A stretch of DNA of 41,462 nucleotides from Bacteroidota bacterium (GCA_004297845.1 SCSP01000390.1:1-41462); one strand, 5' to 3'. Positions 483 through 33,769 are shown, counted from the stretch's first letter. The notes: generated by a model not told the origin, from the sequence alone. Numbers and translations: made by a program.

Positions 483-547
483 CAAAGATATTTTTAAACT
501 ATGCCACATGAAATGAGAGAAATCAGTTTGCGGAGTGATTGTTGTCA
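483..547 (-). promoter_or_regulatory. hsp20 promoter: tandem TGA-N6-TCA boxes (547-536, 525-514) plus -7 element TATCTTTG (490-483)
   Basis: Minus strand reads TGACAACAATCA-N10-TGATTTCTCTCA-N23-TATCTTTG; the same geometry recurs at other promoters. Confidence 0.75.
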
Positions 548-554
548 TCCTGTG

Positions 555-743
555 AGTAGCTATTTTTGTTCCGGTACAATCATTTTCAAAAATGTATGTT
601 TGAAGATGGATTTCAGATTTTGCATTTGAAATAATGTTTAGTAGGCGAATAAAATAATCTTCCCCGCTGTGAACGAGTTCAACATTCTCAATAGATTGAA
701 CATTTTTATCTCTGATTATACTATGCTCTTTTTCCCTCTGCAT
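555..743 (-). pseudogene. N-terminal remnant of a cardiolipin synthase (ClsB/PLD family)
   Basis: VELVHSGEDYF..LL..I..AKSEIHLQTYIFENDCTG.KIA matches the Cls N-terminus. Similarity ends near 556, before any HKD motif, and the ORF runs on into the hsp20 promoter. Confidence 0.75.
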
Positions 744-1809
744 TCTTTATCATAATAAATTCCAAAATATTATCGAGGTCTAATACTCCAACAAATTGTT
801 GATTACTGTAAACGAAAGCTAATGAGTTTGTTCCGGCTATCATAGTAAGATAAACCTCCTCCAAAGATTGATTGGCATTTAATCGTATCGGCTCTTTATT
901 TGCAATTGCATGAAGGATGGTGCCTTTTCCGTTATCTGAAAGTGCTTTTATTATTTCATCCCTGCCCAGCGTGCCAACAGGATGTTTGTCGGACGTAACA
1001 ACAAAATTTTTACACTGCCCATTCAGTAATTTTTTTATTGCATTTTCCACTATATCGTTTTCGTCTATGGTTTCATAATTTTTCATAACAATGTCTTTCA
1101 CAAATATTCCTTTCAGCATAAAACCGGCTTTGGTCATTTCGGCTTCGGCTTGTGCTCCAAGCAGGATAAATAAACCGATAAAAATTAAAAATGGACTAGT
1201 GTAAAATCCGAGAAACACAAAACCAACTGCAAGTAATTGACCAATACGTGCTGCTATATTAGTTGCAATATGTCTTTCAAACTTCATGGCAAGCAATGCT
1301 CTCAGCACCCTGCCTCCATCCATCGGGAAAGCCGGAATTAAATTAAATACTGCCAGCCATGTATTTACGATAAAAAAATTTAAAAAGAAATTGCTTTGAT
1401 TTACTCCGCCTGCCAACTGAATGGTTAAATTCTGTATATCAGGGATTGTAATAAACAAGCTCGTAATTAAAACTAAAGCAATATTCACAGCAGGTCCGGC
1501 AATTGCTACTATTAATTCTTCTTTGGGCTTTTCAGGGATTCTTTCTAAACGTGCTAAGCCCCCAATGGGTAAAATTGTAATGTCTTTGGTTTTTATATTG
1601 TATCGCTTTGCCGCGAGTGAATGTCCGAGTTCGTGCAGAAAGACAGTAATAAAAATGCTGAGTATGAAAATAACCGACCATACTATTTGTTCGGTATTGT
1701 GCCCCGATCTATAGTTACTGAAAATGATATATGCTATTAGTATAGAAAATGTCCAGTGTACAAATACACTGATGCCTGCAATGTTTCCAAGTTTGAATGA
1801 TCCTTTCAT
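721..1809 (-). CDS. M50 site-2 intramembrane zinc protease with C-terminal CBS pair (Rip3/Rv2625c-like)
   Basis: HELGH and NLIPAFPMDGGR motifs, several TM segments, CBS-like VKDIVMK...VGVLDLDNI. Confidence 0.93.
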   Translation of the reverse strand: MKGSFKLGNIAGISVFVHWTFSILIAYIIFSNYRSGHNTEQIVWSVIFILSIFITVFLHELGHSLAAKRYNIKTKDITILPIGGLARLERIPEKPKEELIVAIAGPAVNIALVLITSLFITIPDIQNLTIQLAGGVNQSNFFLNFFIVNTWLAVFNLIPAFPMDGGRVLRALLAMKFERHIATNIAARIGQLLAVGFVFLGFYTSPFLIFIGLFILLGAQAEAEMTKAGFMLKGIFVKDIVMKNYETIDENDIVENAIKKLLNGQCKNFVVTSDKHPVGTLGRDEIIKALSDNGKGTILHAIANKEPIRLNANQSLEEVYLTMIAGTNSLAFVYSNQQFVGVLDLDNILEFIMIKNAEGKRA

Positions 1810-1853
1810 ACTTATTTATTTAAAGTTGGTAAATGTTTACGTGTCGTTCATTA

Positions 1854-2954
1854 TTAATGCTGCATCCCACCCATTGAATTTGAACTTTGCTTTATTGTTT
1901 GTTCACTTTTCAAAAGAAAAGCTCCTGAAATGACAACAATATCTCCTTCTTTCAGCCCTGACAAAATTTCTATTTCTATTTTGTTTTCAATCCCGGTTGT
2001 TACCATTCGTGGCTCAAACATACCGTCAGAGGTTTGTACCCATACGGAAATCATTTTTTCAACGAGGAGAGAAGATTTTGGGATAACCAATGTTCTTTTC
2101 TCATTTCGTTTCAAATAGATATATGCCATCATTCCCGGTCTTAGTTTATTTTCTTTGTTATCTACCTTCACTCTTATAAGATTTACTTTTTGGTTTGTTT
2201 CAAGAGCAGGATTATCGAAAACAATTTCTCCGCTGAATAATTTACCTGGATACACTTCAAACTCTACTGATAGTTTTGGATTCTGTCTCAAAAATTTCAC
2301 TTCATCGCCATACACTTGCACTTCTATCCACATGGTACCTAGGTCAGATATTTTCGCAATGGGAGTTCCTATCTCCACATATTCACCTTCGTGGACAGAT
2401 AATTCGGTGATATACCCCTCTGTATGGCTGAAAAATGAAAGTGTAGCAGATGGCTTATTTGTTTTTTCCAATTCCTGTATTTGTTCTTCGGTAATTGTCC
2501 ACTGCAAAAGTTTTTTCCTTGCTCCATCTGCCAGTTGCTTTGCGGTTTCCTTTTGCGACTTGGCATTATTTAGTAGTTCCAACGCGATCAGATAATCATT
2601 TTCATCGGCAAGCAATTCCTCGCTGTAAATATCATAGAGAAGTTTGCCTTTTGAAATATATTCACCTGTATTGCGGACATAAACCCGTTCCAACCTTCCT
2701 TTTACTCGTGATGAAATTATAGTTACTTGGGTTTCGTTAAAAACAACTGTTCCTGTTAATGTACTTTGTTCAGAAATGTTTTTTACTCGCATAGTATCTA
2801 TTTGAATATTCGCTTTAATTATTTCTTCCTTCGTCAGTATTACCATATTTTCCGTTCCATCATGACCTTCATGTTCAGAATGATTTATGGCATTCTCTGA
2901 ACAGGAAAGCAGGAAAAGAGAAACCAGAAACGATATGATGTAGCGCAATTTCAT
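1854..2954 (-). CDS. cusB: CusB-type RND periplasmic adaptor, lipoprotein
   Basis: LLSC lipobox, His-rich HSEHEGH, biotinyl/lipoyl-like GRLERVYV...YSEEL, LRPGMM, Met-rich tail SMGGMQH. Confidence 0.88.
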   Translation of the reverse strand: MKLRYIISFLVSLFLLSCSENAINHSEHEGHDGTENMVILTKEEIIKANIQIDTMRVKNISEQSTLTGTVVFNETQVTIISSRVKGRLERVYVRNTGEYISKGKLLYDIYSEELLADENDYLIALELLNNAKSQKETAKQLADGARKKLLQWTITEEQIQELEKTNKPSATLSFFSHTEGYITELSVHEGEYVEIGTPIAKISDLGTMWIEVQVYGDEVKFLRQNPKLSVEFEVYPGKLFSGEIVFDNPALETNQKVNLIRVKVDNKENKLRPGMMAYIYLKRNEKRTLVIPKSSLLVEKMISVWVQTSDGMFEPRMVTTGIENKIEIEILSGLKEGDIVVISGAFLLKSEQTIKQSSNSMGGMQH

Positions 2955-4198
2955 TTTGATTTGATTAAACTTTCTCTGTCAATCATATATCCTGCATCAA
3001 ACACAATTTCATCTTTGTCTGTTAACCCGCTGGTAACTTCTGCCATATTGCCTTGAGAAACTCCTTTTGTAATGTTCTGAGCCTGAAAAATGTATTTTCC
3101 TTTTTCTGGTTCGCCCGTTTTTACCCAAACAATACTTCTCCCTCCGAGAAAGAGTATACTGCTGTTTGGAATCAATAATTGTTTTGTTTTAACAGAATTT
3201 ACTTTTGCTGTCAGCAGCGAGTTTATTTTAAGCAACCCCGATTCATTGTTCAGATAAATTCTCGCGGATAGGAATTTTTGTCCATTTTGAAGAACGGGTT
3301 CAAGCAAATTTATCTTGGCTTTAATAATATCATCCCTGTCAAGCTCGCTTGTTAATTCAATATCTGTACCGACTGAAATTTCAGATGAATGGCTATTGTC
3401 AATCAAGACAATTCCCAAAACTTCTTTCAAATCATTTACTTTGAAAAGGGTTTGTCCTTTGTTTACATAACTTCCTTCTCGTATTTGAAGCGTAGAAGTA
3501 TTCATTGGCTGATTTGATGATGAATTGCTTGACACTCCCATTCCGCCCATTTGAGACGGATGGGTGGTAGGTATTTGAAGTGAAGGCGCATTTGTATTGG
3601 TGAAATACACATAACCATCATAAGAACTTAGTACACTCGTAGAATAAAGTGTTTTGCCTGTGACTTCGATTTCTTTCAATTGAGAATCAGAAACTCCCAT
3701 CAGCTTTAATTTTTCTTCTGCTTTTTTCACCAGTTCATTTTCTGATTTGTTTTTTAGGAGAAATAAAAGTTCTTCCTGTACGGTGTTTAATTCTGCGCTG
3801 TATATCTCCATCACCTTTTCTCCTTTATTCACATACTGAAAATTATATTTCACAAACAATTTTTCAATTCGTCCGCTGAAGCGTGCTGAAATTTTGTTAT
3901 CCCTTCTTTCATCTACCGCGATATATCCGTTTGCAGAAATAGTAGTATTGCTTTCCGACCAAGCTGGCTTCACAGTTTTCTGAGAAGAAATAACGCTATA
4001 ATTAGTTGGCAATGAAATTGATTTCAAATCAATCGTGTCATTTTTCTTCATCTCATGGTTCGGCATGTTGTGCTTATCATGATTCATGCTCTCATGACCC
4101 GAATGTTCCGATTGGTTGTTACAGCCGTTAGATAACAGCAGCCCTGCCAAAAGAAAACTCCAATAGCACAATTGTATTTTATTTTTTCTGCGATTCAT
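2951..4198 (-). CDS. cusB: Second CusB-type RND periplasmic adaptor, lipoprotein
   Basis: SNGC lipobox, His/Met-rich HSGHESMNHDKHNMPNHEM, ISARFSGRIEKL, internal QMGGMG loop. Confidence 0.87.
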   Translation of the reverse strand: MNRRKNKIQLCYWSFLLAGLLLSNGCNNQSEHSGHESMNHDKHNMPNHEMKKNDTIDLKSISLPTNYSVISSQKTVKPAWSESNTTISANGYIAVDERRDNKISARFSGRIEKLFVKYNFQYVNKGEKVMEIYSAELNTVQEELLFLLKNKSENELVKKAEEKLKLMGVSDSQLKEIEVTGKTLYSTSVLSSYDGYVYFTNTNAPSLQIPTTHPSQMGGMGVSSNSSSNQPMNTSTLQIREGSYVNKGQTLFKVNDLKEVLGIVLIDNSHSSEISVGTDIELTSELDRDDIIKAKINLLEPVLQNGQKFLSARIYLNNESGLLKINSLLTAKVNSVKTKQLLIPNSSILFLGGRSIVWVKTGEPEKGKYIFQAQNITKGVSQGNMAEVTSGLTDKDEIVFDAGYMIDRESLIKSK

Positions 4199-5429
4199 AT
4201 TCGTATTCTGCTTGAAGTTTCAGTACAGTAAATAATTTATCGTTGTATTCCATCTTTTTCATGAGAAGCATTTCCCATGAGTCGAGTAATACAAAAAAAC
4301 TTCCTGTGTTTTGTTTGTAAGTGAGAAGTCCTGCTTCAAAGTTTTCAGAATACATTGGAATAATTCCCTCCTCGTAGTTCTTTAACTGCTTCATTTCATA
4401 TTTTAGCATGGAGAGCTTTTCATTTATCATTTGAATTGCCATGAGTTGCATGGTTTGTTTTTCATGAGTCATGGATTGAATTTCAAAACCCATAGATTTC
4501 ACTTCTGACTTATACATTTTTTCCGACCAGGGCGCAATAGGAATTGTAATCATTCCCATTACAGAATACTGATTGGGCATCCCGAACATCTGCATGTGGT
4601 CAATTCGCACACCGAAATCCGGCTTGCGAAGCGAGTACATGTAATCTTTACTTAACTGCATTGACTTAATTGAATTTTTCATGGCGGTTATATCACTCCT
4701 GTTAAGTGAATTTGTATCTATAACCTGTGGAAATGTTTTGTATGGTTTTAAACCCAGTGTTGTGTCAATAGAAAAATCGGTACTCACATCACGATTCATC
4801 AGCGTATTCAGCCCGATATTACTTTCAGAAATCATGGAATGAAGCATGGCTTCCATATTCTTGAGTTCTTCAAGTTTTGCTTTCGCTTTGAAAATTGTGC
4901 TGAGGTCGCTTTGATTGTATGGATATTTTGCCTCAGATGTTTTAATCAGTAATTCTAACAACTCACGGTTTTCGGCAAGCAGTTTCAGCTTTCTTTCAGA
5001 AACTAATCTCTGGTAATAAAAATATTTTGCATACAAATTAAGTGTGTTCTTTGTCCATTCCTGATTGTTCTTTTGAATTTTCGGTAACGAAGACAAATAA
5101 TTTTGTTTTGCTTTCAGTTTTCCTGAATTTGGAATCATCTGTTCTACTGTGAACATCAACCCTGCTTGATTCATCGGACCAACATCTTTCAGCATCATAG
5201 GGTTATAGGGAAACTGATTCAAACCGAAAGAAGCGGTAGGAGGCATCCATGCTTTTGAACCCTCCACTTGTGCCTGCAGGGATTGAACTTTATAATCGTA
5301 TTTCAGAATTTCAGGATAATTTTTCTCGACAGAATCTATTATCTGAATTAATGTCAGATTTGCATCCTGAGCTTGCAAAAAAACATTGGAGAGGAGAAAT
5401 GATAGTATGGTTATTATTTTCTTCATCAT
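4179..5429 (-). CDS. TolC/CusC-family outer-membrane efflux channel
   Basis: Signal peptide, long helical segments, PDFGV...ITIPIAPW beta strands, Met-rich; lies in the RND operon. Confidence 0.88.
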   Translation of the reverse strand: MMKKIITILSFLLSNVFLQAQDANLTLIQIIDSVEKNYPEILKYDYKVQSLQAQVEGSKAWMPPTASFGLNQFPYNPMMLKDVGPMNQAGLMFTVEQMIPNSGKLKAKQNYLSSLPKIQKNNQEWTKNTLNLYAKYFYYQRLVSERKLKLLAENRELLELLIKTSEAKYPYNQSDLSTIFKAKAKLEELKNMEAMLHSMISESNIGLNTLMNRDVSTDFSIDTTLGLKPYKTFPQVIDTNSLNRSDITAMKNSIKSMQLSKDYMYSLRKPDFGVRIDHMQMFGMPNQYSVMGMITIPIAPWSEKMYKSEVKSMGFEIQSMTHEKQTMQLMAIQMINEKLSMLKYEMKQLKNYEEGIIPMYSENFEAGLLTYKQNTGSFFVLLDSWEMLLMKKMEYNDKLFTVLKLQAEYEYESQKK

Positions 5430-7345
5430 TCTGTTTTAATGAAAGTTAATTCCCCTTTTTTCTTAAACTCATATTCTTTCACAAGCGCAAAAACGCATGG
5501 AATCAAAATGAGTGAATAAAGAGTTGAAAACAGTAGACCGAAAACAAAAGGAAGAGCAATGGGGCGCATCACGTCACTTCCTGCTCCTGTTGCATATATT
5601 ACAGGAATCATTCCCAGCACATCCACGATTACCGTCATTAGTATAGGACGTATTCTTAAAGCCGAACCCTTAAATATCGCTTCTTCAATACGTAAAGGCG
5701 TAATACTGAATTTTTCCAATAACGAATTTTCATTCAATTTTCTTAATTCATTATTCATATAAAACAAAATCAATACTCCTGTTTCAACCGCAACTCCGAG
5801 CAAGGAAATGAAGCCCACTGCAACTGCTACAGAGAAATTCACATGATAAAAGTGAAGGGAAAGTATTCCTCCTATAAAAGCAATCGGTATTCCCGAAAAA
5901 ATAATTAATACTTCACGAAAGGAGTGAAAAGTGGTGTACAATACAACCATCATAATAAGCAGTACAATTGGAATAATTATACTTAATCTCTTTTGTGCGC
6001 GAACCTGGTTTTCATACTGCCCGCTCCATTGAATAAAATATCCTTTAGGAAGTTTCTTAAATTCATTTTCAATCTTGTTTTTTGCTTCTTTCACCACGCT
6101 TCCCATATCCCTCCCGCGAATATTAAATAAAACTGTTCCGCGAAGCATGGCGTTTTCGGAGTTAATCATGGGCGGTCCATCGGCAACAGAAATATCCGCT
6201 ACTGATGAAAGCGGGATATTTCCGTAAGTGGAAGTTTGAACAGGAGTTCGTTTGATTTCTGAAATATCATTGCGAAAATCTTGTGCAAGCCGAACGCTGA
6301 TGGTAAATCTTTCTCTTCCTTCAACTGTATTTGTAAGATTCATTCCACCCAAAGCGGATTCGATAACCATGTTCACATCTTCAACACTTATTCCGTAACG
6401 GGCAATTGCATCACGGTCAATTTTTATGGTAAGGTATTTTCCTCCAATCAGTTGTTCGAGATATAAATCAGAGAGTCCTTCAATTCCACGAAGCGATTTT
6501 TCTATTTTCCCCGACAAATAAAAAATTGTATCAAGGTTTTGACCATATATTTTTACTCCTACATCTGTTCTGATTCCTGTTGAAAGCATATTAATACGAT
6601 TGATAATGGGTTGCGTCCATCCAACCATCACTCCGGGTATTTTGACTTTCTCATCTATTTCAGAAATAAGTTTCTCTCTTGTCATTCCTTCTCTCCATTG
6701 AGCTTTTGGCTTCAGGATGATAATCGTTTCAATCATGCTCATAGGAGCATTATCGGTGGCAGTATAAGCTCTTCCTGCTTTTCCTAAAACATTTTCTACT
6801 TCAGGAATATTTTTCAGGATCTTATCTTGCACCTGAAGAATTCTTTTCGCTTCAGAGTTGGATACATCAGGAAGTGTTACAGGCATCATCAGCAAGGATC
6901 CTTCGTCTAATGGAGGCATAAACTCAGTTCCGGTATTCATTACAACAGGAATGCTTGCGATAGAAAAAAGGATGATTGTTGTAATGACAGATTTTTTCCA
7001 TTGAAGGCAGAATCTTACAATTGGAGAAAAAATCATTGTGAGATATTTTGAAACAGGATTGTTGTTCTCACTGCGAATCGTTCCTTTAACAAAGCTTCGC
7101 AAAACAGCCGGAAGAATAAAAAGAGCAGTGATGGCGGAACCGATCATGCAGAATGTTTTGGTAAGTACCAATGGAGTAAATAATTTTTTCTCTTGTCCTG
7201 TTAGAAATAATATAGGGGCAAATGAAATCAATGTTATCAGGATGGACATAAATATCGCACGCCCGATAGTAACCGTTGACTTACGAATGATATCCACCCG
7301 TTCTTCCTCAGGTATTTCGGATGTATGTCCTTTTTTCTTTTCCAT
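5426..7345 (-). CDS. cusA: CusA-type heavy-metal RND permease, C-terminal part (TM5-TM12)
   Basis: GTEFMPPLDEGSLLMMP, ATDNAPMSMIET and NRINMLSTG carry the equivalents of the E. coli CusA M573/M623/M672 triad; also WSGQYENQ and GVAVETG. Confidence 0.92.
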   Translation of the reverse strand: MEKKKGHTSEIPEEERVDIIRKSTVTIGRAIFMSILITLISFAPILFLTGQEKKLFTPLVLTKTFCMIGSAITALFILPAVLRSFVKGTIRSENNNPVSKYLTMIFSPIVRFCLQWKKSVITTIILFSIASIPVVMNTGTEFMPPLDEGSLLMMPVTLPDVSNSEAKRILQVQDKILKNIPEVENVLGKAGRAYTATDNAPMSMIETIIILKPKAQWREGMTREKLISEIDEKVKIPGVMVGWTQPIINRINMLSTGIRTDVGVKIYGQNLDTIFYLSGKIEKSLRGIEGLSDLYLEQLIGGKYLTIKIDRDAIARYGISVEDVNMVIESALGGMNLTNTVEGRERFTISVRLAQDFRNDISEIKRTPVQTSTYGNIPLSSVADISVADGPPMINSENAMLRGTVLFNIRGRDMGSVVKEAKNKIENEFKKLPKGYFIQWSGQYENQVRAQKRLSIIIPIVLLIMMVVLYTTFHSFREVLIIFSGIPIAFIGGILSLHFYHVNFSVAVAVGFISLLGVAVETGVLILFYMNNELRKLNENSLLEKFSITPLRIEEAIFKGSALRIRPILMTVIVDVLGMIPVIYATGAGSDVMRPIALPFVFGLLFSTLYSLILIPCVFALVKEYEFKKKGELTFIKTE

Positions 7346-7352
7346 TACAAAT

Positions 7353-8621
7353 TTATTTCTTCAAAATCCTATTTGCAAGTTGCCTGTACGCATTTTCTCC
7401 CATTACAATACTTGAATCCACCAAATCGCCTACAGCAAGAGCAATTCCTCCCAACGACATGATATTAGAGGTAACACCGAAAAGTTTCATCAGGATAAAT
7501 CCTATCAGCATGGAGAGAATGATATTCAATATGCTTACGAAGCCCGTGCCGAAATGAAAAAGAAATAGCAACACAACAATACTGACAACAATTATCTCTT
7601 CCAATACCGATTCTTTCAGTGTATTGATTGTTTCGTTGATTAAATCGCTTCGGTCATACGCAACTTTGAATTTAACTCCGGGAGGTAGTCCTGTTTTTAC
7701 GTCATTCATTTTTTCCTTCACTCGATCAATCACATCTTTTGCATTCTCACCATAGCGCATCACTACAATACCGCCCACAACTTCACCTTCTCCGTTCTCA
7801 TCTACAATGCCAAGCCGTAAATCGCTTCCCATTTGTACATCGGCAATATCTTTCAACTTAATCGGAATAGAGTTATACATCCCAACGGAGATGTTTTTCA
7901 CATCTTCTATGTTTTTTATGTAACCCAATCCCTGAATCATATATCCCATCGAATTCATTTCATACAAACTTCCTCCCACATCGCGGTTATTATTCATAAT
8001 GGCTTTAGTTACTGCCATAAGCGGAACATTATAGTAAATGAGTTTGTGGGGATTGATGGTAACCTGATATTGTTTCTGGAATCCTCCGAACGATGCCACT
8101 TCGCTCACACCCTGTACATTCTGCAAAGCGAATTTTACATACCAATCCTGAGCAGCGCGGAGCTCACCGAGATTATATCCTTCCCCTTCGAGCGTATACC
8201 AAAATATGTGACCGATCCCTGTACCATCAGGTCCGAGTGTGGGAGTAATTCCTTGAGGAAGAAACTTTTGAGCGTAATTCAACCGTTCCAGCACACGGGT
8301 TCTTGCCCAGTAAATATCTACGTCATCCTCAAAAATCACGAAAATGAAACTCATCCCGAACATGGAAGAAGCGCGAACTGTTTTGATTTTAGGAATTCCC
8401 TGAAGATTTGAAACAAGAGGATAGGTGATTTGGTTTTCCATTATCTGAGGGTTACGCCCCATCCATTCGGTGAAAACAATGACTTGATTTTCTGATAAAT
8501 CAGGAATTGCATCCACAGGAGTTTGGTAAATGGAAAATATTCCTCCGGAAACAATCATAGCAATCCCAATCCATACTAAAAAGCGGTTATTGGTTGACCA
8601 TGATATGATTTTTTCAATCAT
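7353..8621 (-). CDS. cusA: CusA-type heavy-metal RND permease, N-terminal part (TM1-TM4)
   Basis: PVDAIPDLSENQVIV, DIYWARTRVLERL, LGPDGTG, TM4 NIMSLGGIALAVGDLVDSSIVMGENAY. Confidence 0.92.
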   Translation of the reverse strand: MIEKIISWSTNNRFLVWIGIAMIVSGGIFSIYQTPVDAIPDLSENQVIVFTEWMGRNPQIMENQITYPLVSNLQGIPKIKTVRASSMFGMSFIFVIFEDDVDIYWARTRVLERLNYAQKFLPQGITPTLGPDGTGIGHIFWYTLEGEGYNLGELRAAQDWYVKFALQNVQGVSEVASFGGFQKQYQVTINPHKLIYYNVPLMAVTKAIMNNNRDVGGSLYEMNSMGYMIQGLGYIKNIEDVKNISVGMYNSIPIKLKDIADVQMGSDLRLGIVDENGEGEVVGGIVVMRYGENAKDVIDRVKEKMNDVKTGLPPGVKFKVAYDRSDLINETINTLKESVLEEIIVVSIVVLLFLFHFGTGFVSILNIILSMLIGFILMKLFGVTSNIMSLGGIALAVGDLVDSSIVMGENAYRQLANRILKK

Positions 8622-8623
8622 AA

Positions 8624-8929
8624 TTATTTAACACACAAGCATTTGTATATCTGTTCTGCTATTTTGTTGTTTTCGCAGAGGCAGTAAAAAGTATTTACTC
8701 CTTCGGTCTTCCGCTCAAGAATTCCACATCTTTTTAAAATGCCAAGATGTCTTGATACGATAGGTTGCTCCATTTTTAGTGATCCATAAATACTTTTTAC
8801 AGTCATTCTGTTTTCTTTGCTGCTGCAAATCAAATTCACAATGGCAATCCGCTCGGGATGACCTATGGATTTTAACGCTTCTGCCAATAGGTTAAAATTT
8901 TCTTTTAGGATGTGGTTTTGCTTAGACAT
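8624..8929 (-). CDS. ArsR/SmtB-family regulator heading the cus operon
   Basis: LKSIGHPERIAI and QPIVSRHLGILK winged HTH; several Cys. Start moved to ATG 8929 because the TTG at 8941 overlaps the -7 element. Confidence 0.88.
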   Translation of the reverse strand: MSKQNHILKENFNLLAEALKSIGHPERIAIVNLICSSKENRMTVKSIYGSLKMEQPIVSRHLGILKRCGILERKTEGVNTFYCLCENNKIAEQIYKCLCVK

Positions 8930-12745: not shown

Positions 12746-12749
12746 GATC

Positions 12750-25130: not shown

Positions 25131-25823
25131 ATGAAAGCAAAGAAACATTTACCTGCAATCATCCTCGGACTTTGTTTAGTGAGCGGTCTGTGTGTGTTAA
25201 ATGGCTGCGGTATTTATACGGAGATATCTGTAACTGCAGATGAAAACACAAACCTGTCGAATTTCAAAACATTTGCCTGGCTGCCGGACAAAATGGATTC
25301 CAATAACTCGCCTTACAACAATGAGATCATACGCAACAACCTAAAAAACTATTTTGGTCAGGAAATGGCTGAGAGGGGATACGGTGTGAACCTGGATACC
25401 CCCGATGTGTTGCTGCAGGTTACCCTTGTGAATAAAAAGCAGGAAAAGGAAGTGCGATACCCGGTTTATCCGCGCCCTTTCTACTACTGCAACTATTTTT
25501 ACTGCAGTGTGTATTATTCGCCCTATCCCTATGCTTATTATTACAGGCATTATGACAATTATTGTTACTCCATGGGCTATTGTAAAGAAACTGTCCAGTA
25601 TGTTGAAGGTTCCATCACCCTGAACGTGATAGACCGAAAAACCAACAAATTAGTTTGGGCGGGCACTGCCAAGGGGGATATTTACGACCCTGCCTACATC
25701 AACCGCAGCATACATCCTGCTGTGGAGGCTATCATGAAAAAATTCCCGGTGTCTCCTATTGGAAATAAAAAGAAAAGCAATAAAACGGACGATGTTTATA
25801 TGAATAATTCTGCTGCCAAGTAA
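25131..25823 (+). CDS. DUF4136-family lipoprotein
   Basis: LNGC lipobox, FKTFAW, RGY...PDVL, Y.EGSITLNVID.KTNKLVW.G. Confidence 0.82.
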   Translation: MKAKKHLPAIILGLCLVSGLCVLNGCGIYTEISVTADENTNLSNFKTFAWLPDKMDSNNSPYNNEIIRNNLKNYFGQEMAERGYGVNLDTPDVLLQVTLVNKKQEKEVRYPVYPRPFYYCNYFYCSVYYSPYPYAYYYRHYDNYCYSMGYCKETVQYVEGSITLNVIDRKTNKLVWAGTAKGDIYDPAYINRSIHPAVEAIMKKFPVSPIGNKKKSNKTDDVYMNNSAAK

Positions 25824-25890
25824 TATAAGAAGGTTTTTTATCAATGATGTTTTTATTTCTTGTGCTCAAAGGTTATTGTTAATTTTGTTC

Positions 25891-26274
25891 GTGGAAAAAA
25901 TTCGCACATAGATCAATGAAAAATGGATGGACAAGAAAGGCATTCTGCGGATCAAGGTGATCGAAGGTGCTGCTATTACTTTGGAAAATCTGAAGGAAGA
26001 CGATGCAGTAAACCCTCAACTTACCGAGGGTAAAAAAGCTCTTGCTCTTTACGATGCGTGCGCCTTTTTTTCAATCACTCCTGAAGCAGAAAAATTCCTC
26101 AGGAGTGGTATTCTCAATAAGTCCCGTATTGCTACAGCTGTACTCACCGATAAGTTTTTTGTCCGCCTGCTTGTAAATTTCATGAATAACTTTACCCGAC
26201 TGAAATCTCCTCTTAAAATGTTCGGCAGGGAAGAGGCAGCATTGAAGTGGCTATACTCTTTCAAAGAGAACTAA
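25891..26274 (+). CDS. Hypothetical STAS/SpoIIAA-like protein; in-frame TAG at 25909, restart ATG at 25927
   Basis: GILRI...ITLE..KE, IATAV, PLKMF..EE.AL.WL. In-frame GTG at 25891 follows the -7 element TAATTTTG (25880-25887). Confidence 0.55.
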
Positions 26275-26315
26275 CCTGGAGCTTCTTCTTGGGGCGTAGT
26301 TTAAATAAGCACAAC

Positions 26316-27406
26316 ATGACCACCACTTCCTCTTCAATAATTAAAAAACTGCTTATCCTGTTTCTTGTTTTTGCAGGATTACACTATGGAAAAGATTTCC
26401 TGATGTCTCTGACAATAGGGGCTGTGATAGCAACACTTTTTTACCGTTTTGCAAATGGATGGAAAGAAAAAAAGTCCTCAAGGGGCTGGCAGCGTTAATA
26501 TGTCTCCTGGTATTATTGATGGCAATAGCAGGTGTAGTGTCAGTGCTGGGTTGGCAGATATCGGAACTGACAAAGGATATTACCCTCATAAAACAACAAG
26601 TTGTTGAGATTGGCAGCCGAGTTCAGCTTTATATATTTAATCACTTCGGCATTTCAGCATTTCAGCAAACGCAGTTACTTAAAGAGGAACAACCATCCTA
26701 TACCGGTATTATACAGATGATGGCAGGTTCATTGGCATACTTCTATGTCAATTTTATTTTAGTGCTTGCATATATTTTTCTTCTATTGTATTATCGCAGC
26801 CACATTAAACATTTCATCCTTAAACTTTTTCTTCACTCTCGGCAAAAGGAAATGGAGCACGTAGTTGACCGCGTAACCCATGTATCGCAACAGTATATAG
26901 TGGGGCTTAGTAAAATGATAGTATGCTTATGGATAATGTATGGCATTGGGTTTTCCGTATTAGGAGTAAAAAATGCTCTCTTTTTTTCCTTTCTCTGCGG
27001 TCTGCTGGAAATCGTTCCGTTCATCGGAAACATTACAGGAACTATACTCACTGTATTAGTAGCTGCAGTTCATGGAGCCAGCTTTCCTATGCTTGGAGGT
27101 ATTATTGGTATTTATGGAGCAGTTCAATTTATACAGGGCTGGCTGCTGGAACCTATCCTGGTAGGACCTCAGGTAAAAATTAATCCATTGTTTACCATCA
27201 TTGCTTTGGTGATAGGCCAATTGGTTTGGGGTATACCCGGTATTTTTCTTGCCATTCCCATTACCGCTATGTTTAAGATCGTGTGTGATCATATCGAACC
27301 TCTAAAGCCTTTGGGTTTTCTGATAGGTGAAACTGAAACCAGAAAAAGAGAACAGGGTTTTATCAAAAAAATAAGAAGCTGGTTTCAAAAGAGCAGGAAT
27401 AATTAA
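26316..27406 (+). pseudogene. AI-2E (PerM) family transporter with a 1-bp frameshift in a T run
   Basis: N-part MTTT...GAVIATLF (from 26316) and C-part ..MERKK..IVPFIG..LEP.LVG...INP are joined by adding one T to the T6 at 26437-26442. Confidence 0.8.
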
Positions 27407-27501: not shown

Positions 27502-30500
27502 TTATTCCTTTATAATTTTCCTATGATGAATTGAATCTCCCGATTTGACGTGAAGGAAATATACCCCGCTTGCTAATTCACTTAAGTTGAATCTGTTGTT
27601 ACTCTCTTTTGGTTTAATGCTCAGAATTATTTTCCCTAAAGCATCTGAAATTAAAATTTCATCTGCTATTAGATTTTCTGTTAAAACAGTGATTTCCCCA
27701 AAGATTGGATTAGGGTATACAAAAACACTCATATTGCCGGGCGATTCACTTACACCTGTGCACAAATCAACATACAACAATAGTGTGTCAGTGCTGCTAC
27801 AGTTGTTTGCATCTGAATAGGTGTAAATAATATTCCACAACCCTGCTCCCGCGCTGTCCGGGTCAAATGTATTTCCAACTACGCCTTGCCCGCTCCAGAT
27901 TCCTCCGGATGGGGAGCCAATTAAATTTCCCGCAGGAGACGACAGGCAGAACGTATCATTTGCAATACTTGCTGTAACTACCGGATTTGGATTTGCCAGA
28001 ATATTTTGAACATTGCTGACGGCAGTACAGCCTGCGCTGTTTGATACTATCACCGAATAATTTCCGGAAGTGTTAACTGCGATGCTTTGTACAGTGGATG
28101 AATTGCTCCATAAATAGGTATTTGCGGAACTGGAAGTCAGCGCCACGCTGTCCCCCTGGCAAAAAGTTGTTGGACTTCCTGCTGTGATAATCGGGGTAGT
28201 TGGGTTTGAATTAACAGTAACATTAATCGGTAAACTCATCGCAGTGCAACCTAACCCGTTCGCAACAGTAACCGAATAATTCCCTGATGCGCCAACTGTA
28301 ATACTCTGCATTGTTGATCCGTTATTCCACAGATAAGAATTTTCGGCAATAGAGCTAAGTGTTACGCTATTTCCCGGACAAAATGTGGTAGAACCATTTG
28401 CAGTAATCGTTGGCGTTGACGGGAGAGAATTCACAGTTATATTTGTTGTTGTACTTGTCGCAGTGCATCCAAAACCATTCGCAACTTTTACAGAATAATT
28501 CCCCGATGCACTAATGGTGATGTTTTGTGTTGTTGATCCGTTATTCCACAGGTAAGAATTATTTGTGCTGGAACTAAGTGTAACACTATTGCCAGTGCAA
28601 AATGTGGTAGATCCGCTTGCCATGATCGTTGGTGTCGAAGGGTTTGGTATGATAGTAATTGAATACGTATTGCTTTGAGAAATACAGCCGTTTACATTCA
28701 CCGCTACAGAATAATTTCCTGTTGCAGAGACCGTTATACTTTGAGTGGTTGTCCCTGTTGACCAAAGGTAAGCAGCACCGATAGCCGATGCATTCAGTGT
28801 CATACTCTTTCCTTGGCAAATAGAATCGTTGCCGATAACTGCAACCGCATTGGAAGGAGTCGCGGTTACAGTAACGAGGTTCGTAATAATAATTGTGCTG
28901 TCCAGTAAACTGGCCGTGTCGGTTATTGTAAGTTGAACAGAAAAATTTCCGGTGGTTGTATATGTGTGCGAAGGAGAAAATAATGTATCTGTATTTCCGT
29001 CACCGAAATTCCATAAATATTTATCGCCATCAACACTGTTGTTGGTAAAAGAAACAATTCCGCTGTCGCAGAAGGAAGTATTATTGGCAGTGAAACTTGG
29101 AATGAGCAATAAATTTTTATTGAATGTATCTGTAAGTGCCACGCTCCATTGCTGCAACGTATCGCGGAACTGAAAATGAATAATATGTGAGCCTTTTCGG
29201 ATTCCGGTCATATCTATATTCGTAAGCAAGCCGTAAGGATTAACAGGTGTGGACAGATTAATATTTGTGACGGAAGCGAAAGCCGTATCAATCCAATAAC
29301 GATATGCGGTTATGAGATTTGGTATTGAAGCGGAAGGGGAAATTTTCTGAAAGAACTGGTTCACAACAGAACTCCACCTATCTGCATCATCTTTGAAACG
29401 AAAGTGAAAGGTGTGAAGCCCATTGGTTAATGCAGAAGCAGAAAGTCCGGTGATCACCTGTATCTGAGTTTGAGCCGTAACAGATTGTGAAACTTTTGAG
29501 CCAAAATTATTATCGTACCAGTATTCGTAAGCAACAATCTGATGATTGGCAACAGAGGTTGCAGGAATTTTCTGAAAGAACTGACTCACTACAGAGCTCC
29601 AGTCACCCGCATCGTCTTTAAAGCGAACGTGAATGGTGTGTAAACCATCGTTTAATGCGGAAGCGGAAAGTCCGGTGATAACCTGTACCTGACTTTGAGC
29701 CGCAACAGATTGTGAAACTTTTGCGCCAAAGCCATTGTCGTACCAGTATTCGTAGGCAACAACCTGATGATTGGTAACAGAGCTTGCAGGAATTTTTTGA
29801 AAGAACTGACTCACCACAGAACTCCAGGCGCCTGCATCATCTTTGAAGCGAACGTGAAAGGTGTGCAATCCATCATTTAATGAAGAAGCAGAAAGTCCGG
29901 TGATCACCTGTACTTGACTTTGAGCTGAAACAGTTTGTGAGACTTTGGTGCCAAAGCTATTGTCATACCAATATTCATAAGCAACAACCTGATGATTAGT
30001 AACAGAGCTTGCAGGAATTTTTTGAAAGAACTGACTCACCACAGAACTCCAGACGCCCGCATCATCTTTGAAGCGAATGTGAAAGGTGTGTAATCCATCA
30101 TTTAATGAAGGAGCAGAAAGTCCTGAGATTACCTGTACTTGACTTTGAGCAGTAACTGATTGTGAGACTTTGGAGCCAAAGCCATTGTCGTACCAATATT
30201 CATAAGCAACAATCTTATGATTGGTAACAGAGCTTGCAGGAATTTTTTGAAAGAACTGACTCACCACAGAACTCCAGACACCTGCATCATCTTTGAAGCG
30301 GATGTGAAAGGTGTGAAGTCCATCGGCCAATGCAGAAGCTGTCAGTCCAGTAATTACTTGTATTTGACTTTGAGCCGTAACAGATTGTGAAATTTTTGCA
30401 CCAAAATTATTATCGTACCAGTATTCGTAAGCAACGATCTGGCGATTGGTAATAGTAGTAGTAGGAATTTTCTGAAAGAATTGACTTACAACGGAACTGT

Positions 30501-31578
30501 ATCTCGAATTATCATCTCTGAAGTGAATATGAAATGTATGTAATCCGTCAGTTAGACCAATAGTAGAAACAGTGCTAATAAAGTTGAAACTACCCACAGG
30601 GCTTATACCGGTTGTGGTACGTGCAGCATAAGAATTATCGAACCAATATTCGTAAGAATTTATTTTTGAAGGAGGTGGGTTCCATTCCCAAAAATCCTGT
30701 TTATTAGCGACATCCAATCCTGTTCCGATGTACCCTTTTGCGCCAATAGAAAATCCTGTGGCGTAATATCTTGTTGTTCCGCCAAAACTTGCCTTTTGCA
30801 CCCAGATATCAGTCGCCTGATTCCATTCCCAAAAATCCTGTTGATTAGCACCATCATTTCCTGTTCCTATATACCCTTTTGTGCCGATAGAAAATCCTAC
30901 GGCAGCATGTCTCGCTGTTCCGCCAAAATCAGCTTTTCGCGTCCATACATCGGTCGCCTGATCCCATTCCCAAAAATCCTGTTTATTAACGCCATCATTT
31001 CCCGTTCCGATGTACCCTTTTGTACCAATAGAAAATCCTACGGCACTATATCTCGCTGTTCCGCCAAAATCAGCTTTTCGCGTCCATACATCAGTCGCCT
31101 GATCCCATTCCCAAAAATCCTGTTGATTAGCGCCATCATTTCCTGTGCCGATATACCCTTTTGTGCCGATAGAAAATCCTGTGGCTCCCCATCTTACAGT
31201 TCCGCCAAAGTTTGCTTTTGATGTCCAGCTATTGGTCGTCTGATCCCATTCCCAAAAATTATTTGTAAAACCACCGATTTCCCCTGTCCCGACATACCCT
31301 TTTGTGCCGATAGAAAATCCTACGGCAGTATATCTTGCTGCTCCAACAAAATCAGCTTTTTGCGTCCATGCATTAGTTGCTTGATTCCATTCCCAGAAAC
31401 TTTGTTGACGAACCAAGCCATCTGTACCGGTTCCGATGTAGCCTTTTGTACCGATAGAAAATCCTACGGCAGCGTATCTCGCTATTCCGCCAAAGTCGGC
31501 TTTTTGAGTCCATGTGTCTTGTGCATTTGAACTTACTACAAAAACAATAAATATGATTACGAGATAGAATTTTTTCAT
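27502..31578 (-). CDS. Large T9SS cargo: 6 Kelch blades, 7 x ~75-aa EYW(Y/F)D repeats, PKD, Ig-like PTITA.G.TTFC repeats, type-A CTD
   Basis: Signal peptide SNAQ, repeats visible in the translation, WNFGDG PKD, VYPNP...SGVYFL...KIIKE. Confidence 0.9.
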   Translation of the reverse strand: MKKFYLVIIFIVFVVSSNAQDTWTQKADFGGIARYAAVGFSIGTKGYIGTGTDGLVRQQSFWEWNQATNAWTQKADFVGAARYTAVGFSIGTKGYVGTGEIGGFTNNFWEWDQTTNSWTSKANFGGTVRWGATGFSIGTKGYIGTGNDGANQQDFWEWDQATDVWTRKADFGGTARYSAVGFSIGTKGYIGTGNDGVNKQDFWEWDQATDVWTRKADFGGTARHAAVGFSIGTKGYIGTGNDGANQQDFWEWNQATDIWVQKASFGGTTRYYATGFSIGAKGYIGTGLDVANKQDFWEWNPPPSKINSYEYWFDNSYAARTTTGISPVGSFNFISTVSTIGLTDGLHTFHIHFRDDNSRYSSVVSQFFQKIPTTTITNRQIVAYEYWYDNNFGAKISQSVTAQSQIQVITGLTASALADGLHTFHIRFKDDAGVWSSVVSQFFQKIPASSVTNHKIVAYEYWYDNGFGSKVSQSVTAQSQVQVISGLSAPSLNDGLHTFHIRFKDDAGVWSSVVSQFFQKIPASSVTNHQVVAYEYWYDNSFGTKVSQTVSAQSQVQVITGLSASSLNDGLHTFHVRFKDDAGAWSSVVSQFFQKIPASSVTNHQVVAYEYWYDNGFGAKVSQSVAAQSQVQVITGLSASALNDGLHTIHVRFKDDAGDWSSVVSQFFQKIPATSVANHQIVAYEYWYDNNFGSKVSQSVTAQTQIQVITGLSASALTNGLHTFHFRFKDDADRWSSVVNQFFQKISPSASIPNLITAYRYWIDTAFASVTNINLSTPVNPYGLLTNIDMTGIRKGSHIIHFQFRDTLQQWSVALTDTFNKNLLLIPSFTANNTSFCDSGIVSFTNNSVDGDKYLWNFGDGNTDTLFSPSHTYTTTGNFSVQLTITDTASLLDSTIIITNLVTVTATPSNAVAVIGNDSICQGKSMTLNASAIGAAYLWSTGTTTQSITVSATGNYSVAVNVNGCISQSNTYSITIIPNPSTPTIMASGSTTFCTGNSVTLSSSTNNSYLWNNGSTTQNITISASGNYSVKVANGFGCTATSTTTNITVNSLPSTPTITANGSTTFCPGNSVTLSSIAENSYLWNNGSTMQSITVGASGNYSVTVANGLGCTAMSLPINVTVNSNPTTPIITAGSPTTFCQGDSVALTSSSANTYLWSNSSTVQSIAVNTSGNYSVIVSNSAGCTAVSNVQNILANPNPVVTASIANDTFCLSSPAGNLIGSPSGGIWSGQGVVGNTFDPDSAGAGLWNIIYTYSDANNCSSTDTLLLYVDLCTGVSESPGNMSVFVYPNPIFGEITVLTENLIADEILISDALGKIILSIKPKESNNRFNLSELASGVYFLHVKSGDSIHHRKIIKE
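29125..30660 (-). repeat. Coding tandem repeat, 225-bp (75-aa) unit, 7 copies (5 near-identical)
   Basis: Recurring AYEYWYDN.FG.KVSQ.V.AQ.Q.QVI.GL.A..L.DGLHTFH.RFKDDAG.WSSVVSQFFQKIP. Confidence 0.92.
30680..31518 (-). repeat. Coding Kelch repeats, 141-bp (47-aa) unit, 6 copies
   Basis: W..KA.FGG..R..A.GFSIG.KGY.GTG......FWEW repeated six times. Confidence 0.92.
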
Positions 31579-31590
31579 CGTATAATTATA

Positions 31591-32622
31591 TTAATTGTCT
31601 TGTGCCTTTACCTTTATATTGATATTCAAATCGCCAGCCGGTGTGGTGGTTGGGGCAATCGTTTTTGTTTGGATGTGCGGATTCCCGGGAACAGCAGCTT
31701 CTTTATAAGGGTAATATCCTCCGTAAATCCCAACTTGTGTTCCATCGGTGCCTAAATATGTTCCAGGAGATTGAAGGTGGTAGTTGTGCGTGTAGTTAAA
31801 GGAATTTCCGGTTTGGCTAGTGAAAATGGATGCTTGGGGCACATTAAAATAGTTTCCACTGATAACACCTGATCCTAGAGAAGGCGTATAAATAAAAAGA
31901 TTGTTGCTTACGGTATTGTTCACTGCTCCTCCGCGAAAAATAACATTGCTATGAATTATAATATTGTTTTGAATCAATGACTGGTCGCTGTAGTAAAATA
32001 CAAAGTCTTCATTCCATCCCCAATTGCCATCATAATTCAAAAACACATTATTTTGCACCACCCCATTATTTAAATAACGCACTCCTCCATTCACAATGTT
32101 ATTTGAGAAATTAAGTGTGTTTGCGTTGTCGGTATTCAGACTCCCTGCCACAATATTATTTATCAATGTAGCATGTATGCATGGGGTAGTCCGGCTTCCC
32201 GAAAAATTTATACTGCCGTTAATAAAATTCTTTTTTATCAGAACATAATCAACCGCCTGATCAGCAGTAAAATTTAAACTGCCATTTATATACAGACCCT
32301 CAATACAGGAACTATCTGCACTACCCGAAAGCGTGATTGTAGTGGTGACGAAACTTACTCCTGTGGCTCCTGTGCTGTCGGGATAATGTCCAGTTCCTAT
32401 AATGGTGAGGCGTTTATCAATGGAAGCAGGAGGATTAAAATTTCCGCCCGGTAAAATAATTGTATCACCGGCAACAGAGGCTGTGTAAGCATCCACAAAT
32501 CCGCTGTTGCTGTAAAAAGGAGTAGTGGTTCCGTTGTGGTGAAGCGTTACAACAGTAAGTTGAGCGCTGGCAGAAGCCACAGACGTAAGAAACAATGTAG
32601 TTGCGAGGAAAAGGTTTTTCAT
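31591..32622 (-). CDS. Secreted right-handed parallel beta-helix protein (paralog A), no T9SS CTD
   Basis: Signal peptide, AGDTIILPGG, IIGTGHY, Asn-ladder I.NNI/NNVF repeats, GTDGTQVGIYGG. Confidence 0.78.
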   Translation of the reverse strand: MKNLFLATTLFLTSVASASAQLTVVTLHHNGTTTPFYSNSGFVDAYTASVAGDTIILPGGNFNPPASIDKRLTIIGTGHYPDSTGATGVSFVTTTITLSGSADSSCIEGLYINGSLNFTADQAVDYVLIKKNFINGSINFSGSRTTPCIHATLINNIVAGSLNTDNANTLNFSNNIVNGGVRYLNNGVVQNNVFLNYDGNWGWNEDFVFYYSDQSLIQNNIIIHSNVIFRGGAVNNTVSNNLFIYTPSLGSGVISGNYFNVPQASIFTSQTGNSFNYTHNYHLQSPGTYLGTDGTQVGIYGGYYPYKEAAVPGNPHIQTKTIAPTTTPAGDLNINIKVKAQDN

Positions 32623-32645
32623 TTTTTTTATTTTTAAGTGATTAC

Positions 32646-33680
32646 TTATTTGTCTTGTGCGCCAACAGTAATATTGATATTCAAATCCCCGTTGTTATCT
32701 GTATAAGGGGCAATGATTTTCGAACGAATGTGAGGATTGGCCGGAACTGCGCCTGCCTTGTACGGATTTGCTGTTCCATACATCCCAACCTGTGTTCCGT
32801 CATTACCCAAATATGTTGCCGGATTTTGCAAATGATAATCACTGGAGTAGTCTATAGTGTAATCTGTTTCATTTACGAAAAAATTTGTAAAGGAAATATT
32901 TGTATAGTTTCCGCTTCCGATATTTGAGCCGACAGGGAATGAAAGAGGAATATTAAACACATTGTTTGTGAAAATGCCGGAGTAAACATCACTGCTGATC
33001 CCAATTACTCCACATCCGCTAACGAGTATGGCAATATTATTTTCTACAGTGGCGTTTGACCCTGTGGCAATACAATAAGCCGGACATCCGCCACCACCAA
33101 GGAATGTATTGTTTTTTACAGATATGTTCCCATTAAATAAGGATACATCGGCATTGATCAGATTATTTTCAATGCTAACAAACTGCGCGTTGCATACCCT
33201 CACCCATCCTCTTACAATATTTTCTTTTACTATTATATAAGATGCTGTGCCCGTTAAATTTTGGTTGTACCCCATCTGAATTCCAGCCACATTGCATCGG
33301 GCGATGCTATAATTTGTAACCGTTTGGTTAGCAGGCGAGTTTCCAAAAATAATGCTGCCAGTGAGGTAGATTCCCGATATAGAACCGAACGAAGCATTAT
33401 TTTTCAAATAAATATTTCCACTGAGTGTGGTGGCATAAGTTGCCTGTGTTGAATCCGGATAATGTCCAGCTCCTATTATAGTAATGGAGGAATCAATAAA
33501 TAAATTATTTATCTGGAATCCGCCTCCCGGAAGGTAGATTGTATCTCCTGTTCTTGCAGTGAAGAAAACAGAATCTATCTGGTAATAGATATGCGAAGTT
33601 CCGTTCTGCCTTACAAAAGCACGCTGAGCGTACATATTCAATGAAAGAAGAAAAAGCGATAATGTGATAATTTTTTTCAT
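32646..33680 (-). CDS. Secreted right-handed parallel beta-helix protein (paralog B), no T9SS CTD
   Basis: Signal peptide, TGDTIYLPGG, IIGAGHYPDST, NNL/NNT/NNI repeats, GNDGTQVGMYG. Confidence 0.78.
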   Translation of the reverse strand: MKKIITLSLFLLSLNMYAQRAFVRQNGTSHIYYQIDSVFFTARTGDTIYLPGGGFQINNLFIDSSITIIGAGHYPDSTQATYATTLSGNIYLKNNASFGSISGIYLTGSIIFGNSPANQTVTNYSIARCNVAGIQMGYNQNLTGTASYIIVKENIVRGWVRVCNAQFVSIENNLINADVSLFNGNISVKNNTFLGGGGCPAYCIATGSNATVENNIAILVSGCGVIGISSDVYSGIFTNNVFNIPLSFPVGSNIGSGNYTNISFTNFFVNETDYTIDYSSDYHLQNPATYLGNDGTQVGMYGTANPYKAGAVPANPHIRSKIIAPYTDNNGDLNINITVGAQDK

Positions 33681-33704
33681 GTTAATTCTTTTTGTCTATG
33701 AATA

Positions 33705-33769
33705 CAAAAGAACAACACTTGCCTTTTTTAGTTTATGAGTTATGTCATTTAATCGTATGATTCATATCA
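33705..33769 (-). promoter_or_regulatory. Tandem TGA-N6-TCA boxes (33769-33758, 33747-33736) plus -7-like TTCTTTTG (33712-33705)
   Basis: Minus strand TGATATGAATCA-N10-TGACATAACTCA-N23-TTCTTTTG. Confidence 0.74.

Follow-up and report, generated by a model that had tools for sequence, protein, structure and literature searches.

Tandem CRP/FNR-type boxes of fixed geometry at the promoters of a candidate low-oxygen regulon in Bacteroidia

The window analyzed here is a stretch of 41,462 nucleotides (SCSP01000390.1:1-41462 of assembly GCA_004297845.1). It is contig C112 of a 3.47-Mb Bacteroidota genome (G000) that comprises 412 contigs and has a G+C content of 42%. The sequence is present in two DNA runs from a single groundwater-metagenome study, and the closest public relatives of its genes belong to uncultured Bacteroidia. 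Seven promoters in the window carry a short palindrome, TGA-N6-TCA, at a fixed distance from a promoter -7 element, and at five of them a second copy of the palindrome lies 22 bp further upstream. The original prediction, made from the window by itself, took these palindromes to be the operator of a dormancy or low-oxygen regulon that is switched on by one activator encoded elsewhere in the genome. Taken as a whole, that interpretation is partly supported by the analysis described below.

We call a box any TGA-N6-TCA with a perfect core, and a tandem pair any two boxes whose starts are 22 bp apart. The gap is the number of nucleotides between the proximal box and the octamer that forms the -7 element; a gap of 23 puts the TTTG of the octamer at offset 27 (N27). 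The seven promoters and the genes that follow them are listed here, with open reading frames abbreviated as ORFs and the type IX secretion system as T9SS.

483-547, minus strand: hsp20 promoter, with -7 element TATCTTTG at 483-490, proximal box at 514-525 and distal box at 536-547.
12-464, minus strand: Hsp20/alpha-crystallin gene (Pfam HSP20, E-value 1.6e-20).
8939-9003, minus strand: arsR-RND operon promoter, with -7 element AATATTTG at 8939-8946, proximal box at 8970-8981 and distal box at 8992-9003.
721-8929, minus strand: ArsR, a CusA/CzcA-type RND pump (two ORFs), an outer-membrane factor, two CusB/HlyD-type adaptors and an M50-CBS protease (Pfam).
13218-13282, plus strand: mlaE operon promoter, with distal box at 13218-13229, proximal box at 13240-13251 and -7-like element CATCTTTA at 13275-13282.
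13295-19322, plus strand: MlaE, MlaF, MlaD, a DnaJ-like protein, thioredoxin, an unknown protein of 131 amino acids, a low-affinity iron permease and a beta-CASP RNase (Pfam).
20418-20460, minus strand: CBS promoter with a single box, with -7-like element TAAATTCG at 20418-20425 and box at 20449-20460.
19366-20403, minus strand: CBS-pair protein and CDP-alcohol phosphatidyltransferase (Pfam; start codon placed from the sequence).
20480-20522, plus strand: phasin-ubiB promoter with a single box, with box at 20480-20491 and -7 element CACATTTG at 20515-20522.
20545-22646, plus strand: phasin-like protein (weak match) and ABC1/UbiB kinase-like protein (Pfam; NCBIfam UbiB 419 bits, below the cut-off of 487.55).
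22657-22721, plus strand: T9SS-cargo operon promoter, with distal box at 22657-22668, proximal box at 22679-22690 and -7 element TTCCTTTG at 22714-22721.
22764-27406, plus strand: two Por_Secre_tail proteins, a DUF4136 and a DUF7793 protein, an ORF of 83 amino acids and an AI-2E family transporter (Pfam).
33705-33769, minus strand: beta-helix operon promoter, with -7 element TTCTTTTG at 33705-33712, proximal box at 33736-33747 and distal box at 33758-33769.
27502-33680, minus strand: two unknown proteins of 344 and 343 amino acids (beta-helix lead for the former, from Atlas) and a PKD/Por_Secre_tail surface protein of 1358 amino acids (Pfam).

All 12 boxes lie where the original prediction placed them. 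In each of the seven promoters exactly 23 nucleotides separate the proximal box from the octamer, whose TTTG end is perfect in five cases and has one mismatch in the other two. The second box, 22 bp upstream, is present at five of the seven promoters. At the divergent CBS and phasin promoters there is a single box each, and the two boxes are 31 bp apart. This spacing (20449-20491) amounts to about three helical turns, and each of the two boxes might serve the other as an upstream partner. The housekeeping genes of the window that lie past 33969 (lpxK, bipA, NIF3 and recQ) have no boxes.

The tandem geometry is far beyond chance. The window holds five tandem patterns, whereas 100 dinucleotide shuffles of it gave a mean of 0.01 and a maximum of one, so that none reached five. 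A box followed by N27 and TTTG, with at most one mismatch, occurs 16 times in the window, against a shuffle mean of 7.38 (standard deviation 2.31, largest value 14). The spacing seen in the window recurs in the genome as a whole, where 1228 boxes form 22 pairs at exactly 22 bp and only zero to two pairs at each other distance from 1 to 60 bp. When a period of 22 is combined with a gap of 23, the genome contains 16 sites with perfect cores and a perfect TTTG and 10 more with one mismatch in the TTTG. Periods of 18-21, 23-26 and 33 gave no perfect-core site in the genome. With the period held at 22, the only other gap that yielded perfect cores and a perfect TTTG was 22 (n=2). The two sites with this shorter gap are at C162:3116-3149, which belongs to a gene for a NarK-Usp fusion, and at C338:2030-2063, which belongs to DUF892-YkuD.

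Two boxes, and not one, are the rule in this genome. Single boxes followed by N27 and TTTG number 35, of which 16 lie within tandem sites; when the spacing is varied between 15 and 40, its other values give 12-28 (about 19). The excess roughly equals the count of tandem sites, so that single-box promoters are rare. Pairs with one or two core mismatches are no commoner in the genome than in spacing controls, so few sites seem to escape the strict pattern.

The two boxes of a pair are not alike, either in this genome or in its relatives. A good palindrome rich in A and T, TGAyAAAAATCA with tat after it, forms the distal box. The proximal one reads cTGAc....sTCAT: the TGA and TCA cores are kept and followed by a T, and the inner positions are free. 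FNR binds TTGAT-N4-ATCAA, and its class II position is centred about -41.5 from the transcription start. The core of the present boxes had been assigned to this CRP/FNR type, and the assignment agrees with the perfect TGA-N6-TCA found in all 12 window boxes and in all 22 genomic pairs. The proposal that the boxes occupy an activator-type position is also supported: the proximal box abuts the -33 region of promoters in which the Bacteroidetes -7 element is present and the TTTG of the -33 position is absent.

The downstream element was compared among 104 distinct pairs from 95 loci of other species. TTTG is found at offset 27 in 87 orientations, versus 0-7 at other offsets; for 26 pairs it is there in neither orientation and for nine in both. 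Position 2 of the octamer, which played no part in the selection, is A in 85 of these 87 cases, and we therefore equate the element with the Bacteroidetes -7 motif TAnnTTTG. A Flavobacterium promoter consensus, as quoted in a preprint on Chlorobaculum, is TTG-N17-23-TANNTTTG (10.1101/172254).

It is very unlikely, in our judgment, that the boxes are something other than activator sites, such as operators for a repressor, promoters read by an alternative sigma factor, or a short mobile repeat that has been copied. Explanations of this kind would be suited by the unusual invariance of the TGA and TCA cores (cores with one mismatch being no commoner than in controls) and by the location of several sites on short contigs. 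However, the -7 element, with its A at position 2, is that of an ordinary sigma-A promoter, and the boxes are palindromic and thus a poor fit to a sigma -35 element. Conservation is limited to the cores and their spacing and does not extend to spacers or flanks, so that the sites are not repeat copies. Since the boxes lie upstream of -33 in promoters that have no TTTG there, activation fits better than repression.

The distribution of the tandem pattern was determined in 201 sampled genomes of the class Bacteroidia (121 genera) and in an outgroup of 151 genomes from other classes of the phylum. These tallies include two unpublished genomes (G180 and G094), and no claim made here depends on either. 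The pattern is widespread: it occurs in 139 of the 201 class genomes and 82 of the 121 genera, in up to 35 copies, with zero to two matches per genome for a reversed control. The maximum in the outgroup is four, and only four genomes there reach three. Three boxes in series, at 22 + 22 bp, occur at G003:C17:86014-86069, G096:C6:18526-18581, G096:C12:13694-13749 and G081:C2:2518584-2518639. The first of these lies between divergent genes, and its central A/T-rich box is the distal box for both promoters; the other three are known only as overlapping pattern matches.

The genes behind tandem sites outside the window strengthen the low-oxygen reading. They include narG, narH and narI, each above its curated NCBIfam cut-off, preceded by a cytochrome c gene and accompanied by a probable narJ. 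They also include hemN, likewise above its cut-off, in an operon that consists of a small DUF6520 gene, an FNR-like gene, queD and hemN. A NarK-Usp fusion, at least six Usp genes and a nitroreductase gene followed by a Usp gene are further members. narGHJI, narK and hemN are classic FNR targets. The remaining targets in the genome are genes for DUF2267, a CDF transporter, TerB, DoxX, a fatty-acid desaturase, a second CBS pair, two DUF892 proteins, a YkuD transpeptidase, a BON protein, a porin-like protein with ScdA/RIC, and an erythromycin-esterase-like protein with PolX. In three other genomes (G003, G061 and G178), overlapping classes of genes stand behind the sites, namely Usp, Hsp20, CBS, ScdA, MlaEFD-phasin and DoxX. 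ORFs downstream of sites in relatives resemble ccoS, ccoNO and ccoI by size and order alone.

The regulator genes are outside the window, as had been proposed, and the sites are linked to Crp-type genes and to a receiver/PAS-kinase pair. All five HTH_Crp_2 matches of the genome are on other contigs, and all five of those genes are on contigs that bear tandem sites. One of them, at C211:27083-28147, encodes a regulator of 354 amino acids in which Response_reg, cNMP_binding and HTH_Crp_2 domains are joined (the receiver-Crp regulator). It is preceded by a gene for a PAS-HisKA-HATPase kinase, and tandem sites are found at three places, ahead of the kinase gene, in the interval that separates it from the regulator gene, and beyond the latter. 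Around receiver-Crp homologues of other Bacteroidota species (80 loci, 651 kb), there are 91 pairs at 22 bp, eight at 23 bp and zero to four at other distances. At least one tandem pair is present in 49 of the 80 loci, typically upstream of the kinase gene or just past the regulator gene.

Three more Crp-type genes are on contig C162. Two of their products, of 236 (C162:27978-28688) and 239 amino acids, begin with Cys-x2-Cys-x8-Cys and have an additional cysteine in the sequence VCF(I/F)P. In FNR of E. coli, the N-terminal cysteines are arranged as Cys-x2-Cys-x5-Cys, with one more cysteine in the beta-roll. The 236- and 239-residue proteins, which we refer to as FNR-like, are probably iron-sulfur oxygen sensors, judging from these residues. 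The recognition helices of the three proteins are nearly the same: TATETTIR in the receiver-Crp regulator, TATETAIR in the 236-residue protein and TTTETSIR in the 239-residue protein. The best-named NCBIfam models for the regulators, all below cut-off, are Fnr, FixK and FnrL. The fifth Crp-family gene of the genome, on contig C77 (L003:1-975), has a RETTTR helix, is truncated by the contig end and is followed by a gene for a stand-alone receiver; these two genes adjoin a BON gene that has a tandem site.

The Crp part of the fused regulator is 38% identical to the 236-residue protein from residue 27 onward, so that the receiver takes the place of the cysteine segment. No chain in the PDB spans both the receiver and the Crp part of this regulator. 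For the PAS domain of the kinase, the best solved relatives are the haem domains of FixL (1d06, E-value 1.9e-14) and DosP. A histidine of the kinase aligns with the proximal His of FixL. By similarity, the kinase is probably a FixL-like haem-PAS oxygen sensor.

The co-occurrence of regulators and sites was tabulated among the 201 class genomes. The receiver-Crp regulator was scored as present at an E-value of 1e-90 or less (112 genomes, in one of which the copy is truncated at a contig end and in another disrupted by a stop), and an FNR-like protein at 1e-55 or less (58 genomes). The resulting counts are descriptive, as related genomes are not independent and kinship was left uncorrected:

Both types present: 31 genomes, mean 10.3 pairs, at least two pairs in 29.
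Receiver-Crp only: 81 genomes, mean 3.65 pairs, at least two pairs in 70.
FNR-like only: 27 genomes, mean 2.56 pairs, at least two pairs in 17.
Neither type: 62 genomes, mean 0.45 pairs, at least two pairs in 7.

Tandem sites adjoin the FNR-like gene in G178, G083 and G061 and the receiver-Crp gene in G003 and G096. The geometry is the same in G003, classed as receiver-Crp only, and in G061 and G178, classed as FNR-like only. G003 also encodes a divergent Cys-x2-Cys-x5-Cys protein that has a RETVSR helix, lies away from the sites and was missed by the E-value filter. G096, which is 91% complete and has 16 pairs, encodes only two Crp-type proteins over the cut-off, the receiver-Crp regulator and a protein of 214 amino acids with the unrelated helix ATSRVVVSR.

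One could suppose that only the FNR-like iron-sulfur proteins, such as the 236-residue protein, bind the tandem boxes, and that the receiver-Crp regulator controls other things or its own locus. Sites are indeed found at classic FNR targets (narGHJI, narK and hemN), and the gene for the 236-residue protein is itself within the hemN operon, downstream of a tandem site. The regulons are also largest where there is an FNR-like gene (the mean of 10.3 pairs with both types, versus 3.65 with receiver-Crp alone), and G061, G083 and G178, which have no receiver-Crp gene, contain seven to nine pairs of identical geometry. However, most genomes of the receiver-Crp-only class (70 of 81) keep at least two pairs, G096 has its 16 pairs although the sole other Crp-type gene over the cut-off in this 91% complete genome encodes the 214-residue protein with its different helix, the kinase and regulator genes are flanked by pairs in 49 of 80 loci, and the recognition helices are almost identical. 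We consider it unlikely that the FNR-like proteins are the only users of the sites.

The converse, that only the kinase and the receiver-Crp regulator drive the tandem regulon and the FNR-like proteins bind other, single sites, seems to us less likely still. The flanking of the kinase and receiver-Crp genes by tandem sites, here and in those 49 related loci, would be expected if this were so, and at least two pairs are found in 99 of the 112 genomes with the kinase/receiver-Crp pair versus 24 of the 89 genomes that do not have it. Yet genomes with FNR-like proteins alone keep both the architecture and the gene classes, and no distinct motif was found for the FNR-like proteins. Single-box promoters, on which these proteins would then have to act, are hardly above background (35 versus about 19, with 16 of the 35 in tandem sites).

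An attempt to single out one type of regulator by its phyletic pattern failed: both types accompany tandem sites, and of the two receiver-Crp-only genomes that were inspected, one (G003) has an FNR-type protein. The idea of one activator is too simple. There are at least three regulators with nearly the same recognition helix, and sites occur in genomes with receiver-Crp alone, with FNR-like proteins alone or with both. Based on the regulator sequences and their distribution, we conclude that both types of regulator probably use the same operator architecture, that is, that a small set of Crp/FNR-type sensors would act through one shared operator.

We think it likely that the boxes are operators for CRP/FNR-family activators of a regulon for low-oxygen survival and respiration. 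The promoters combine a sigma-A -7 element, TAnnTTTG, with a weaker proximal box that stands in place of the missing -33 TTTG and would be centred near -41, a class II position. The stronger, A/T-rich distal box lies exactly 22 bp further upstream, on the same face of the helix. A dimer on this strong distal box would help a second one to bind at the weak proximal box, from which the latter would contact the sigma-A RNA polymerase, as at class II FNR and CRP promoters. The FNR-like proteins, with Cys-x2-Cys-x8-Cys, are probably one user of the operator and would sense low oxygen by means of an iron-sulfur cluster. The receiver-Crp response regulator is probably the other, and it would be driven by the adjacent FixL-like haem-PAS kinase.

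Several observations weigh against this reading. The cysteine spacing of the FNR-like proteins is x2, x8 versus the x2, x5 of E. coli FNR. Their recognition helix, like that of the receiver-Crp regulator, is E-T-x-I-R and not the E--SR of E. coli FNR: the Glu and Arg are kept and the position of the Ser is Ile. No regulator scored over any NCBIfam cut-off, and the Fnr model, NF008365, gave 104.7 and 101 bits versus a cut-off of 228. The kinase has Met at the position of the distal Arg of FixL. The placement of the proximal box near -41 presupposes that transcription starts at the usual distance from the -7 element. Of the pairs at the kinase and receiver-Crp genes, the one that separates them, at C211:27001-27034 of this genome (L008:8001-8034), lacks a TTTG at the standard distance whichever way it is read; an internal promoter whose -7 element is degenerate, or a different role for the site, may account for this. 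Among the 62 genomes in which neither regulator was found, seven still have two to six pairs, and the receiver-Crp-only class is not clean, given the divergent FNR-type protein of G003. The kinship among the genomes counted has to be added to this list.

A fuller version of the reading can be offered, although we hold it only tentatively and would give it somewhat less than an even chance. The Bacteroidia might have a hypoxia-dormancy programme of their own, based on an obligate dimer of dimers of CRP/FNR-type activators at boxes near -41 and -63, exactly two helical turns apart. Iron-sulfur FNR-like proteins and the haem-PAS kinase, which would phosphorylate the receiver-Crp regulator, would be two independent oxygen sensors that converge on these boxes, and the distal box would nucleate binding and serve both directions at divergent promoters.

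Our best reading is that the sites mark a CRP/FNR regulon of the class II type for low oxygen, with an operator that is unusual in its obligate two-box layout. Class II promoters of FNR and Anr in E. coli and Pseudomonas likewise have a TGA-N6-TCA inverted repeat in a site near -41.5 that replaces a -35-type element. The targets there are also similar (nitrate reductase, narK, hemN and Usp), as is the Crp-family regulator with N-terminal cysteines. Unlike those promoters, the present ones as a rule have a second box, exactly 22 bp upstream, which is found at 16 of the roughly 18 promoters with a perfect TTTG that are above background. The present promoters are further distinguished by the Bacteroidetes -33/-7 type, by an ETxIR helix in place of E--SR, and by a score to the Fnr model below its cut-off.

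The comparison with the mycobacterial DosR regulon that was made in the original prediction holds for gene content, with Hsp20, Usp, nitroreductase, CBS, narK and an M50-CBS protease in common, but not for the regulator family or the motif. DosR is a NarL/LuxR-type regulator, served by GAF-haem kinases, and has a different 20-bp motif. In contrast to DosR/DevR, the regulators linked to the present sites are of the Crp family and their kinase has a PAS sensor; we saw no homology of regulator or operator. A DosR-like trigger, hypoxia, is presumed here. One gene of the window had been called aeRF1-like in support of the comparison, and this label was not confirmed. The ORF of 131 amino acids at 17079-17474 (plus strand) has only a sub-threshold match to eRF1_2 (E-value 0.006; 17.3 bits, versus a cut-off of 27.1) and matched no NCBIfam model at an E-value of 1e-5 or less.

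The nearest described analogue is lxa, a low-oxygen-activated locus in Burkholderia cenocepacia; this island comprises about 50 genes, and 17 of its intergenic points have a TGA-N6-TCA motif (PMC3721108). As presented in that account, lxa is required for the survival of anoxia by an aerobe, its genes encode Usp, alpha-crystallin, nitroreductase and a metal-dependent RNase as well as two-component systems and CRP regulators related to Anr, and its authors liken it to DosR (PMC3721108). Unlike the present sites, those of lxa are proteobacterial and are described there as a single 4-bp inverted repeat with a 6-bp spacer, with no fixed tandem arrangement in the account, and the lxa regulators are separate proteins, versus the receiver-Crp fusion here (PMC3721108). 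A second parallel is the FixL-FixJ-FixK cascade of rhizobia (a subject of PMC9104804 and PMC4999443). It comprises a haem-PAS oxygen kinase and, as its final tier, an activator of the Crp/FNR family that acts on genes for microoxic respiration. The present kinase has a PAS domain most similar to the haem domains of FixL. Because the receiver is fused directly to the Crp module in a protein of 354 amino acids, the LuxR-type FixJ tier and a separate fixK are missing here. The tandem operators are a further difference from the FixL-FixJ-FixK system. If the fuller version of our reading is right, that cascade would here be compressed into two proteins, a haem-PAS kinase and a receiver-Crp regulator.

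No description of such a tandem operator or regulon in Bacteroidota was found in the literature searched, subscription journals and supplementary files being outside that search. Soil, water, sediments and guts all harbour abundant Bacteroidia, and, to our knowledge, the ways in which the aerobic and facultative members sense and survive the loss of oxygen are largely undescribed. With a fixed and easily recognized promoter signature, the low-oxygen regulon could be read directly from the sequence of any genome or metagenome bin that belongs to the class, and work on the signature points to the probable sensors. The system should also be suited to the study of cooperative activation by two dimers of the Crp family and of the replacement of an iron-sulfur sensor module by a receiver.

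Some features of the arsR region are of separate interest. The ATG of arsR is 9 nucleotides past the last base (G) of the -7 element (8929-8946), and the arsR mRNA would therefore be nearly leaderless. The RND pump encoded further along this operon is split (5426-8621, minus strand), with positions 2-415 of ACR_tran at 7353-8621 and positions 416-1021 at 5426-7345. The two ORFs are in different frames with 7 nucleotides between them; the gene may be naturally split or frameshifted, or the assembly may be in error here. The C-terminal ORF scores 600 bits to the NCBIfam model CusA/CzcA, under the whole-protein cut-off of 701 bits. Divergent from the arsR-RND promoter is an operon at 9105-13106 (plus strand) whose -7-like element, TATATTTG (9075-9082), is 71 nucleotides from the nearest box and hence outside the fixed geometry. 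It consists of a second arsR followed by genes for a type III sulfide:quinone reductase-like protein, a rhodanese-thioredoxin protein, an unknown protein, a methyltransferase and DsrE, and its probable role is the handling of sulfide.

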